Assembly: GCA_965200315.1 (NCBI GenBank)
Contig: OZ241362.1
Location: 672,001 to 736,000 of the forward strand
Reading direction: 5' to 3'
Length of the DNA: 64,000 nucleotides
From: Candidatus Latescibacterota bacterium
Lineage (GTDB): Bacteria > Latescibacterota > UBA2968 > UBA8231
Position numbers and translations under genes: made by a program. The notes under the pieces are model-generated. The model was not told where the DNA came from and did not search any database. It was given only the letters and a program-made list of their open reading frames with translations. Below are positions 33,403 through 36,400 of this stretch, one piece after another (position 1 is the stretch's first letter; every line of letters begins with the position of its first letter).

Positions 33403-36400
33403 AGTCTCCTCGCAATAAACTCATCGAAGTCGCCCTACCGCTCGACGCGATCAACGCCGCGGCGGCGCGGGACAAGTCGATTCGGCACGGCCATCCGAGC
33501 ACCCTGCATTTGTGGTGGGCGCGGCGGCCCTTGGCGGCGGCGCGGGCGGTGATTTTCGCGCAGATGGTCGATGATCCGTCGGCGCGTCCCGATCTGTTCC
33601 CGACCAAGGCCGAACAGGAAAAGGAGCGCGAGCGGCTGTTCCACCTCATCGCAGAGTTGGTGAAGTGGGAGAACACCACTAACGAGCAGGTGTTGGAACA
33701 GGCGCGGACGGAAATTCGCAAGAGCTGGCGGCACACCTGCGCCGACCATGCCGATCACCCGCGTGCCGCCGAACTGTTCGACCCGGATAAGCTGCCGGCC
33801 TTTCACGATCCATTTGCTGGCGGCGGCGCATTGCCGTTGGAGGCGCAGCGGTTGGGGCTGGAAGCGCATGCCAGCGACCTCAATCCGGTGGCCGTGCTCA
33901 TCAACAAGGCCATGATCGAGATTCCGCCGAAGTTCGCCGGGCAACCGCCGGTGAATCCGGCGTCCCGCGAGGAAAAGAGCCTGATTGAGCGCGAATGGAC
34001 CGGGGCGCAGGGGTTGGCCGAGGATGTGCGCTACTATGGCCAATGGATGCGCGACGAAGCCAAGCGGCGCATTGGGCACCTGTATCCGCAGGTCGAGATT
34101 ACCGAGGAGATGGTGCGGGAGCGGCCCGATCTTGAACGATACAAGGGGCGCAAGCTGACGGTGATTGCGTGGTTGTGGGCGCGGACGGTGAAAAGCCCGA
34201 ACCCGGCGTTTGCCGATGTGGACGTGCCGCTGGCTTCGACCTTTATGCTCTCGACGAAGAAGGGGAAAGAGGCGTATGTCGAGCCGGTGATTGAGGGGCG
34301 GGAGTATCGGTTTGTGGTAAAGGTGGGGAAGCCGAAGGATGCGGCGGCGGCGAAGCGTGGGACGAAACTGGCGAGGGGAGCGAACTTTCGCTGCGTGATG
34401 TCGGGTGCTGTTATCAACGATCCCTACATCAAGGCTGAAAGCATGGCCGGACGCATGGGGGCACGATTGATGGCGATTGTTGTCGAGGGAGATCGGGGGC
34501 GGGTTTACCTTGCGCCGACGCCGGAACATGAGGACATTGCCGGGCAGGCGGAACCGATGTGGAAGCCAGACCAACCGATGAATCGTGATACAAGCAACTT
34601 GGTGAGTGGTCGAGGATACGGCTTCTTCACGTGGGCAGACCTCTTCACCCCCCGCCAACTCGTCGCCCTGACCACCTTCTCCGACCTAGTGGCCGAAGCG
34701 ATGGAGCGCGTCAAGAACGATTACTTGGGTGCGCGGGCGTCTCGCACGCAGGCGAATCCGTCGATAATCGACCCACCCAAGAAGCCCCGCACACAGGCGA
34801 GCCAGAGGCTCGCGCACCCAGACGCGCCCTCGGATGGGTATCCATCCACAGACTCCGCACGCATCTGGCACTCTCGTGGCTACCACCCCCATTTGGACGT
34901 CCCCGGCCTTATCCAGAGCGTCACATTTCGCTTGGCCGATAGCGTACCGTATGACCTGCTTCAGCAGTGGCGCGAAGATCTGAGAATAGATGGGAAGAAC
35001 CCTCCAGATAGTGCCAACATAGCGGCGTTGATGAACCGAATTGCAAAATATGAAGACGCCGGACATGGTGCCTGCCATCTGCGACGAGCCGAGATCGGTC
35101 AGCTAGTTCAGAATGCACTTTTACACTTCGATGGCGAGCGGTACCGGCTGCTCGAGTGGTGCATCATGCCCAACCATGTACACGTGTTGATCAAGCAAAT
35201 CCCGGGCTATCCCCTAGGCGACGTAGTGCAGACATGGAAGTCGTTTACCGCCAAACAGGCAAACCGCATACTCGGACGCAGCGGATCGTTCTGGATGCCG
35301 GATTACTACGACCGTTTTGTGCGCGACGATCGGCACTTGGCTGCGGTGCAGCGCTACATTCGAGACAATCCTGTGCAGGCAGGTCTGTGCGAAGCCGCTT
35401 CGGAGTGGCCGTGGTCGTCGGCTTCAATAGATACCCCCTTGGCTACACAGACCAGCACGGGTGCGCGGGCGTCTCGCCCGCCTGCGGGCCAGAGGCCCGC
35501 GCACCGGCCCGCGCACCTGAGAGACGATGTCCACCTGCGGAATGGAGGCGCAGGCGCGACGGCGTATGCCGAGGCGGTGGGGGTGTATTTGGGATTTCTT
35601 GTTGACCAACTGACCAATCACTTGTCATCGATTTGCAGTTGGAACGTCAATAACACGCAGTTGCGTAGCACATTTGCACGTCAGGCTCTCCCCATGACTT
35701 GGGACTATGCCGAAAGTAATCCACTCTGTAACTCCACTGGCAGTTTTAACAATCTATGGGAGCGCCAAGTCAAGGTATTTACAACACTAGAAAGCGACAT
35801 CCGTGGCACAGCTTTTCAGGCAGATGCAAAACATAGTGATGTTTCTGTAGGGCGCGTCGTCTCCACCGACCCTCCCTACTACGACAACATCGGCTACGCC
35901 GACCTCTCTGACTTCTTCTACGTCTGGCTGCGCCGCTCAATGAGATCAACGTTCCCTGATCTCTTCTCCACGCTCGCTGTACCAAAAGCCGAAGAATTAG
36001 TCGCTACACCATATCGGCATGGGAGCAAAAAAAAGGCAGAGACCTTTTTCCTCGCAGGGATGACAGACGCCATGCAGCACCTCGCCGACCAAGCACACCC
36101 CGCCTTTCCGGTCACCATCTACTACGCCTTCAAGCAGTCCGAAACCAAAGGGGACGCCGGTACTTCCAGCACTGGCTGGGAAACGTTCCTAGACGCGGTG
36201 ATCCAATCCGGCTTCTCGCTCACCGGCACTTGGCCCATGGGCACCGAACTCCGCAACCGCATGGTCGGACAGGGCACCAACGCCCTCGCCTCCTCCATCG
36301 TCCTCGTCTGCCGCCAACGCCCCGCCAACGCCCCCATGGCCACCCGCCGCGAATTCATCACCGCCTTGCGATCCGAGCTCCCCACAGCCCTCACCCACCT

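Follow-up and report, generated by a model that had tools for sequence, protein, structure and literature searches.

A complete RAYT transposase between translated REP hairpins inside the HmaB methyltransferase of a Latescibacterota Hma operon: a probable passenger domain

In a candidate Hma (helicase-methylase-ATPase) defence operon of Candidatus Latescibacterota, the DUF1156 methyltransferase HmaB carries within its reading frame a complete RAYT (a tyrosine transposase associated with repetitive extragenic palindromes [REPs], a Y1 HUH enzyme) together with the REP hairpins that flank it. The operon lies in the window, that is the whole 64,000-nucleotide stretch that was analysed (contig OZ241362.1, positions 672,001 to 736,000), in a genome that consists of a single 5.36-Mb contig with 59% G+C and is labelled G000 in our comparisons. 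The reading that we favour, and hold to be probable, is that a REPtron lives in HmaB as a passenger domain, expressed by its host, with recombination carrying it from allele to allele and REP-REP deletion removing it again. A complete REPtron, a RAYT tyrosine/HUH transposase between inverted REP hairpins, would have lost its own start and stop and taken up residence in HmaB. Two loops of the DUF1156 methylases (sites A and B) are hot spots, and close relatives have them filled, empty or scarred.

The boundaries of the insert were set by comparison with two uninserted DUF1156 paralogs in the same genome and with orthologs, and all feature coordinates are collected in Table 1. The insert lies at site B, after the S-adenosylmethionine-binding motif I (DPFAGGG) and before the catalytic motif IV (DPPY). 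A preliminary description, made from the DNA letters alone, had proposed about 265 extra codons without a stop between these two motifs of a defence DUF1156 methylase, encoding a complete RAYT bracketed by REP palindromes that are themselves translated; each of these points is borne out, with a measured length of 266 codons, and profile matches place the host in an Hma operon next to HmaC and HmaA. The HUH motif reads HVH (35175-35183, aa 593-595) and the catalytic tyrosine, in YIRDNP, stands at 35355-35357 (aa 653), exactly where they had been predicted. The domain matches Pfam Y1_Tnp (E 2.9e-9, 37.5 bits vs a cut-off of 23) and reaches 76.9 bits in the protein search and 81.2 bits in the genome search with NCBIfam REP_Tyr_transpos (cut-off 80); its only sequence match in the PDB is 4er8_A (E 1.2e-5), the E. 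coli RAYT (TnpA_REP) in complex with a REP hairpin. The left REP pair is read as an N-side linker, LGARASR...QASQRLAHP, and the right pair as the C-side linker of the RAYT domain, both REP-encoded linkers being rich in Pro, Ala, Arg and Ser.

Barring unrecognised internal initiation, the RAYT is transcribed and translated only as part of HmaB. From the left junction to the RAYT core (the conserved WHSRGY) there is no in-frame ATG or GTG. The start-like codons in this interval are TTG 34725, with no Shine-Dalgarno-like run in the 20 nt 5' of it, and ATA/ATC codons at 34764, 34767 and 34863; just 5' of the junction the host itself has GTG 34689 and ATG 34701. Three other identities were tried and rejected: (i), a free-standing RAYT gene with its own start and stop, the domain being in frame in a 1228-aa open reading frame (ORF), with no ATG/GTG and no stop; (ii), an IS200/IS605 insertion sequence, the element being present in a single copy and having no gene of its own; (iii), an intein. 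Inteins begin with Cys, Ser or Thr, end with His-Asn followed by Cys, Ser or Thr, and have a Hint fold; the insert begins with Leu-Gly, ends with Leu-Arg before Asp, and no Hint or intein family is found among the Pfam matches of HmaB.

It is very improbable that the fused frame is an artefact, be it an assembly chimera or a frame left open by chance in G+C-rich DNA with the RAYT in reality a separate gene. The stretch is represented in nine public runs. In short-read assemblies the contigs are broken at the REPs, and among the contigs listed none bridges the left junction with at least 31 nt on both sides; over-long Y1 proteins have also been dropped as 'gene fusions or annotation errors', as stated in the accessible part of Quentin et al., 2018. 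Against an artefact, run X2, which belongs to an independent study, yields contigs that match the window letter for letter over 33913-34743, 34743-35455 and 35553-36136 and abut at the REPs, and a contig from an RNA library (run X6) covers 34714-35976 and so runs through the right junction. The insert is moreover an exact number of codons without an ATG or GTG of its own, and the same in-frame architecture, at the same two sites, occurs in more than 1000 independent assemblies. Because of the identical X2 pieces, the X6 contig and this recurrence, the insert is not an assembly chimera, which the preliminary description had named as a way in which it could fail. A high-depth joint, 34291->35553, is present among the contigs and most likely derives from HmaB genes of other organisms at 90% likeness.

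The preliminary description had missed how common the architecture is. It is widespread and has arisen at two hot spots again and again, so that the case in the window is neither isolated nor an assembly error. A RAYT search in proteins of 675-2149 aa returned 1133 clusters at E <= 1e-5, and nearly all of the best 120 of them combine PF06634 with PF01797; PF06634 (DUF1156) is present in about 100 of the 119 listed long matches (hand count, the window's own protein excluded), and some of the long clusters bear the Joint Genome Institute name 'adenine-specific DNA methylase/REP element-mobilizing transposase RayT'. The listed long proteins contain 126 RAYT domains: 63 at site A, 65-80 aa after motif I; 32 at site B, about 320-360 aa after motif I, as in the HmaB of the window; and 31 unclassified. 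Four proteins (P0002-P0005) even hold two RAYT copies in one DUF1156 frame. Among 61 related genomes, all seven long frames with the closest RAYT relatives pair DUF1156 with Y1_Tnp. Across 168 genomes of the phylum, frames of 1203-1441 aa account for 11 of the 32 RAYT matches (10 ORFs), including all nine matches that are at least 51% identical. The best 80 loci in species-representative genomes include 14 in frames of at least 600 aa, ten of them with the marks of a DUF1156-type methylase (nine with all three marks, L044 with DPPY only), from records titled Gemmatimonadales, Ca. Viridilinea, Latescibacterota, Acidobacteria, Methylobacter, Chlorobium (two), Bacteroidales, Deltaproteobacteria and Alphaproteobacteria.

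Free-standing genes for RAYTs of the same clade are plentiful too: 7587 clusters reach E <= 1e-10, with 55-69% identity among the best, and most of the best 120 free-standing rows have a Met of their own from a few to a few tens of residues before WHSRGY. In a FastTree phylogeny of the 190-aa RAYT domain (246 tips), the label changes 38 times between embedded and free-standing, so that the two kinds appear intermixed on the tree; at least two of its 120 'free-standing' rows are methylase fragments, and the tree was used only to show this intermixing.

The hairpins come with the domain. At every junction that was read in relatives, the RAYT lies between hairpins with a 3-nt loop (TCT, TCC, TCG or their complements). 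The stems vary by compensating changes, GCGGGCG/CGCCCGC, GAGGGCG/CGCCCTC, GCGGACG/CGTCCGC, GCAGGCG/CGCCTGC and GCGAGCC/GGCTCGC, a list that is descriptive as the hairpins had been picked for perfect stems. When translated, the REPs yield recurring junction peptides, LGARASRP... on the N side and ...GETPA(H/L/F)P on the C side, which strict patterns retrieve beside 77 and 79, respectively, of the 126 embedded domains.

Among close relatives the presence of the element is patchy. With the C-terminal part of the host as query, the 61 related genomes gave 69 DUF1156 matches; 23 genes are at least 56% identical to this part, six with a RAYT and 17 without, and these six and 17 were aligned and placed on a host-only tree. 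When empty, site A consists of a 10-residue stretch (not spelled out here) followed by (K/R)SLIEREWKGAQG, nearly invariant within the genus, and site B reads RDAANADLPxDxRPLRDGG. The sister gene, which is about 84% identical and comes from the same genus, carries its RAYT at site A and none at B. On the host-only tree, the gene of the window (RAYT at B) is sister to that of G013 (RAYT at A; support 98), the next gene, from G019, being empty, and the gene of G030 (RAYT at B) is sister to that of G007 (support 100), where site B holds REPs only: a clean 57-nt REP doublet between GAT and GCC. Site B holds three REPs in G008 and a degenerate relic in one of the G052 paralogs. The tree requires at least two changes for site A, three for a RAYT at B and five for any REP at B. 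The RAYTs that G000 and G030 carry at the same site B are only 53% identical vs 85% for their hosts over the C-terminal 380 codons, which means that different RAYT lineages, with different REP subfamilies, occupy the same loop.

A possible route of spread is apparent in G052, which has two HmaB paralogs 6 kb apart. Around the site-A element, which lies at the centre of a tract of about 900 nt, their identity is 97-100%; the tract takes in about 200 and 140 nt of host flank. Elsewhere they are 47-90% identical, save for a second near-identical stretch near the 3' end. The synonymous divergence (dS) is 0.008 for the RAYT vs 0.78 for the host C-terminus. By these measures the 900-nt tract is a gene-conversion tract, and it abuts the most divergent part of the two paralogs. 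The same genome contains a 278-aa frame with a RAYT (L019:3690-4523), preceded by residues resembling HmaB upstream of site B (DVMERVK...), which may be what is left of a third, broken HmaB, and which lies about 10 kb away from the two intact RAYT-bearing paralogs; similar 'free-standing' copies are found 10-14 kb from embedded ones in G111 and G109.

In its own genome the RAYT is accompanied by a sizeable REP family. The REP core 11-mer has 77 copies in the genome vs 9 for the reversed control, split into two subfamilies, GGTGCGCG... and GGATCGAG...; this excess, together with the occurrence of the architecture in more than 1000 protein clusters, makes the feature more than a product of chance. 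Exact copies of the 19-mer flanking the RAYT are present at 22 genome sites on both strands (hand count). The embedded RAYT is the sole member of its clade in this genome, which holds about 60-77 cognate REP copies, and no second RAYT of the clade was found in the whole genome. The only other Y1-like ORF (G000:C1:187400-188800, 209 aa) is distant and comes with a different, GTAG-type repeat; tandem copies of this repeat precede it and one is translated within its coding sequence. The window itself has an intergenic cluster of the RAYT's REP family between HmaC and HmaA, where the hairpin at 40789-40836, as single-stranded DNA (ssDNA), folds with -39.5 kcal/mol (z = -11), and is thus as real as first described. 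In run X7, an RNA library, one contig leaps from 40836 to 41058 and so leaves out 221 nt, its shorter side being only 24 nt long; the joint is either a variant deleted from REP to REP or a collapse in assembly. Elsewhere in the window the REP core occurs twice as a solitary copy, at 2919 and at 30795, the latter just downstream of a PhyH-family ORF.

The catalytic residues of the transposase are kept almost without exception. Among the 246 aligned RAYT domains the first HUH histidine is present in 246, the second in 245 and the tyrosine in 246 (126/126, 125/126 and 126/126 in the embedded copies), the single loss being HVR instead of HVH in the second copy of P0004. For embedded RAYTs the ratio of nonsynonymous to synonymous divergence (dN/dS) is 0.083 (G052a vs G056), 0.099 (G013 vs G052a) and 0.173 (second copy of G056 vs G030), and for the host C-terminal part 0.07-0.15; these estimates are from the copies of relatives, as none of the relatives with DNA available is near enough to the copy in the window to avoid saturation. 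Judged by these codon comparisons, embedded RAYTs in relatives are under purifying selection, and not under the neutral drift of both domains that had been considered as a possible outcome.

Structure prediction agrees with a self-contained domain. In an AlphaFold2 model of the first 1199 residues of HmaB (109 aligned sequences; mean predicted local distance difference test score, pLDDT, 72), the RAYT is modelled as a confident unit of its own on two low-confidence linkers, with the methylase motifs intact on both sides: block-mean pLDDT is 78-94 over aa 501-680, and the REP-encoded segments (aa 445-488 and 680-708) fall below 50. The best PDB fold match of the domain is again 4er8_A (Foldseek, E 3.6e-5, target-normalised TM-score 0.65), followed by IS200/IS605 transposases. 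The REP-encoded linkers could let the RAYT fold apart from its host in the two surface loops, and the insert would for that reason be tolerated. It could still be argued that the insert is a mere relic, an ancient insertion that the protein puts up with as a long loop and whose transposase is now idle: the RAYT lacks both a start and a stop codon, its left REP pair has degenerated (83% complementarity), one copy in P0004 has lost a histidine, and the REP-only scars show that decay does occur. We find this improbable given the intact HUH and tyrosine here and in 125 of the 126 embedded copies, dN/dS values of 0.08-0.17, a fold that is modelled with confidence and a well-kept REP family, with the exact 19-mer at 22 places on both strands.

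Which proteins take up the RAYT is informative as to why it is there. Beyond DUF1156, named genomes contain four long frames with an in-frame RAYT, three of which are DNA methylases (HsdM, N6_N4 and Eco57I-like), and an MmeI-like enzyme is also among the hosts. By hand count, the 120 listed medium-length proteins comprise 51 with DUF1156, 12 other DNA methylases or restriction-modification enzymes (HsdM, N6_N4, Eco57I-like or MmeI), 2 with NOV_C (an HmaA-type domain), 22 of other families and 33 unclassified. By these family matches the main hosts are DNA methylases, though others exist: creatininase, radical-SAM enzymes, class II aldolase, MttB and NOV_C proteins are further non-methylase hosts in the protein listings, and some of the fusions in which the RAYT is only N- or C-terminal may be read-through. 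Two non-methylase hosts are truly internal, with two in-frame RAYT copies each between their own domains: an alanyl-tRNA-synthetase-related protein (AlaRS) and IspG (GcpE), in P0043 and P0052.

This bias could point to a functional fusion, in which Hma-type methylases and others akin to restriction-modification enzymes have taken the HUH domain into service, perhaps for ssDNA nicking in defence, for tethering the methylase to hairpins at replication forks, or for REP recombination that exchanges the specificity segments of paralogs. DNA methylases dominate the hosts in the long and medium-length sets alike, and they make up three of the four long non-DUF1156 frames in named genomes; the catalytic residues are retained under purifying selection; and the G052 conversion tract borders the most divergent part of the paralogs. 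We nevertheless rate such a fusion as the clearly less likely account. Sister HmaB genes are without the domain, carry it at the alternative site or have no more than a REP scar, and it is absent from 17 of the 23 genes that are at least 56% identical to the host part. The clade thrives as free-standing genes, in the 7587 clusters noted above, and in-frame copies also occur in proteins that have nothing to do with DNA (AlaRS, IspG, class II aldolase, radical-SAM enzymes, MttB); no recombinant specificity segments have been demonstrated. Of the two alternatives offered by the preliminary description, the REPtron in a permissive loop fits the data: the domain folds independently on low-confidence linkers, it is present, absent or elsewhere in sister genes, REP-only scars exist, and the same clade occurs both free-standing and inside unrelated proteins. 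The other alternative, a functional fusion that shuffles specificity, is the less probable of the two.

How might a REPtron persist in such a place? We hypothesize that the RAYT domain has kept the activity of free-standing RAYTs, nicking and joining single-stranded REP hairpins, and that it serves the REPs of the genome. Its spread between HmaB alleles would be mainly by homologous recombination, that is by gene conversion with co-converted flanks, and it would travel with horizontally mobile defence islands. Its loss would occur by deletion between the flanking REPs and would leave a translated REP doublet behind. A methylase that is paired with a restriction-like effector could shelter the element well, since a cell that lost the insert imprecisely would also lose its self-protection. 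A further and distinctly speculative step, which we think unlikely, would be that this is an HUH lineage specialised as an in-frame passenger of defence methyltransferases (DUF1156/HmaB foremost, then HsdM, N6_N4, Eco57I-like and MmeI), which would rely on host signals for its expression and would enter empty alleles by homing-like conversion set off by its own REP nicking, the resulting recombination breakpoints reshuffling specificity segments.

Several observations weigh against a REPtron passenger. First, the number of REPs does not follow the presence of a RAYT in the 61 related genomes: the REP 13-mer has 67 copies in G007, where the clade is not represented by any RAYT (E <= 1e-5), and G013 and G030 have a RAYT and 7 copies each, bearing in mind that this comparison across genomes uses a single 13-mer and misses variant REPs. 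The REP population of G007 may have recently lost its transposase. Second, the site label changes between A and B only 3 times among 95 tips of the RAYT tree, meaning that RAYT lineages stay at one site, and such fidelity fits old vertical residence as well as recombinational spread. Third, the hosts are strongly biased to DUF1156 and other DNA methylases, which could reflect a functional partnership beyond mere lodging. Fourth, filled and empty alleles differ in replaced linker residues, beyond a clean insertion (the REP doublet of G007 is the only clean one), so that no target site is readable; TAC/TAT, which often precedes the left REP, was considered as a target, could belong to the element, and no target is claimed. 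Fifth, no excision joint at 34724/35523 is found among 15 of 23 joints (four runs), an absence that proves nothing since these joints come from contigs, which drop rare variants. Finally, the global HmaB model is weak (predicted template modelling score, pTM, 0.38), and the fusion protein and the activity of both its domains are predictions from sequence: contigs of two RNA-library runs cover much of the operon, and with DNA carry-over possible in such libraries they do not prove transcription. Because of the methylase bias, the site fidelity and a REP number unlinked to the RAYT, a functional methylase-HUH partnership stays a live rival.

The host operon itself is of a recognisable kind. The PADLOC HmaB profile matches with 1547 bits in two stretches, the match being split, at about profile position 455, by the insert. 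Pfam finds three families only in HmaB: DUF1156 (aa 12-82), a weak MethyltransfD12 (D12-class) match around motif I, and Y1_Tnp (aa 581-656). NCBIfam DUF1156_antiphage gives 114 bits vs a cut-off of 1000, so HmaB is not an equivalog of that model. The gene order is HmaB, a nucleotidyltransferase ORF, HEPN-HmaC and HmaA (Table 1), and by these profile matches the operon is assigned to the Hma system, also called a DUF499-centred BREX-related system. The MNT-type nucleotidyltransferase ORF lies immediately 5' of the Swt1-like HEPN domain (37450-37830) that is fused to HmaC, and looks like one half of an MNT/HEPN pair divided between a separate ORF and the ATPase. A PIN-domain ORF (32716-33402) overlaps the start of HmaB, its end reaching 4 nt into the start-codon region, and it may be co-transcribed with the operon.

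Table 1. Position of the insert, of its parts and of the surrounding Hma operon in the window
Feature	Position	Strand	Basis or detail
In-frame REP-RAYT-REP insert at hot spot B, aa 443-708, 266 codons exactly, no stop	34725..35522	+	set against uninserted homologs
Left REP pair, arms 34726-34749 / 34797-34820	34726..34820	+	83% complementary, 47-nt spacer
RAYT (Y1 HUH) domain, aa 486-680	34854..35438	+	Pfam, NCBIfam and PDB matches
Right REP pair, 35460-35481 / 35484-35505, and partial third arm 35507-35517	35460..35517	+	91% complementary, 2-nt spacer
Hot spot A, empty in the window's HmaB; RAYT here in G013, G052 (two genes) and G056	33954..34013	+	homolog alignments
HmaB, predicted DUF1156 N6-adenine DNA methyltransferase of the Hma system, 1228 aa, carrier of the insert	33399..37085	+	ORF uninterrupted
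SAM-binding motif I, DPFAGGG	33807..33827	+	invariant in alignment of homologs (A1)
Catalytic motif IV, DPPY	35868..35879	+	invariant in alignment of homologs (A1)
Small nucleotidyltransferase (MNT-like) ORF, overlaps the HmaB stop	37082..37447	+	Pfam NTP_transf_2, E 5.8e-12
HmaC, HEPN(Swt1)-fused DUF499 AAA+ ATPase	37450..40779	+	PADLOC HmaC 1124 bits; Pfam HEPN_Swt1 and DUF499
Intergenic cluster of the same REP family in the HmaC-HmaA gap: perfect 48-nt doublet 40789-40836 and further units	40789..41082		repeat and folding analysis
HmaA, SNF2-type helicase with NOV_C domain	41099..44632	+	PADLOC HmaA 1614 bits; Pfam domains

The usual view of RAYTs is of free-standing, 'domesticated' transposases, present in a single copy and passed on vertically, and what the cell gains from them is still debated. 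A large RAYT branch that exists only as an internal domain of other proteins would change what a RAYT can be, and to our knowledge the element would be the first bacterial transposase known to be expressed through the reading frame of a host gene. In practical terms, the predicted 135-kDa fusion could be purified or tagged via its methylase part. If the element promotes allele conversion, it would provide a new route by which methylase specificity changes, and pipelines that discard over-long Y1 proteins as errors would remove this whole class. RAYTs, REPtrons and translated intragenic REPs are known already, the last from what is available of Di Nocera et al., 2013 (PMC3733652). Our literature search found no description of a RAYT inside a methylase, supplementary tables outside that search being places where one may be listed; the words 'fused', 'fusion' and 'in-frame' do not occur in the accessible text of Bertels et al., 2017. 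Many Hma-type and other methylases would bear a second, DNA-nicking activity that goes unmentioned in current annotation and in the accessible parts of recent surveys.

The closest known systems each share part of this arrangement. (i), The Hma system: the operon has the DUF1156 methylase, the HEPN-fused DUF499 ATPase and the SNF2-type helicase with NOV_C that characterise it (a further source on the system is PMC11232893, as far as its accessible text goes). A 2025 preprint (10.1101/2025.10.09.681413) gives Hma the name of DUF499-centred BREX-related system; the part of it that is available describes a 'type 1' with three core genes only and often a HEPN-fused ATPase, and ties DUF3780 to type 2. 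The operon fits type 1, DUF3780 not being among the Pfam matches of the neighbouring ORFs. Neither 'transposase' nor 'HUH' occurs in the main text of this preprint, whose supplements may list such architectures. (ii), Translated intragenic REPs: in the available portion of Di Nocera et al., 2013, REPs are found in frame in functional genes and read as short loop peptides, the inserts being REP units only (single elements, dimers of 20-30 aa, clusters of 43-82 aa). The REP-only states at site B of G007 and G008 are just such inserts, akin also to the Rickettsia palindromic elements; unlike them, the insert of the window includes a whole transposase gene. (iii), REPtrons with free-standing RAYTs (TnpA_REP, 4er8): the element is alike in its Y1 HUH motif and tyrosine, its inverted REP flanks and its standing as the single copy of its clade in a genome with a dispersed REP family. 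It differs in having no start or stop, REPs and transposase being translated as an internal segment of another protein, and in that close relatives share the same two loops of one host family. (iv), IS200/IS605 elements and IStrons: these also have a Y1 transposase with subterminal hairpins. Here there is a single copy, no TnpB was found, there is no intron, and harm to the host would be avoided at the protein level; IStrons likewise avoid harm to the host gene. (v), Inteins with homing endonucleases: these share with the element the form of a selfish nuclease unit in frame that uses the expression signals of its host, recurs at the same sites and co-converts its flanks. The insert lacks splicing residues (its junctions are Leu...Arg|Asp) and, in the Pfam scan, a Hint domain, and its nuclease is an HUH enzyme that acts on ssDNA; unlike an intein, it presumably stays in the mature protein.

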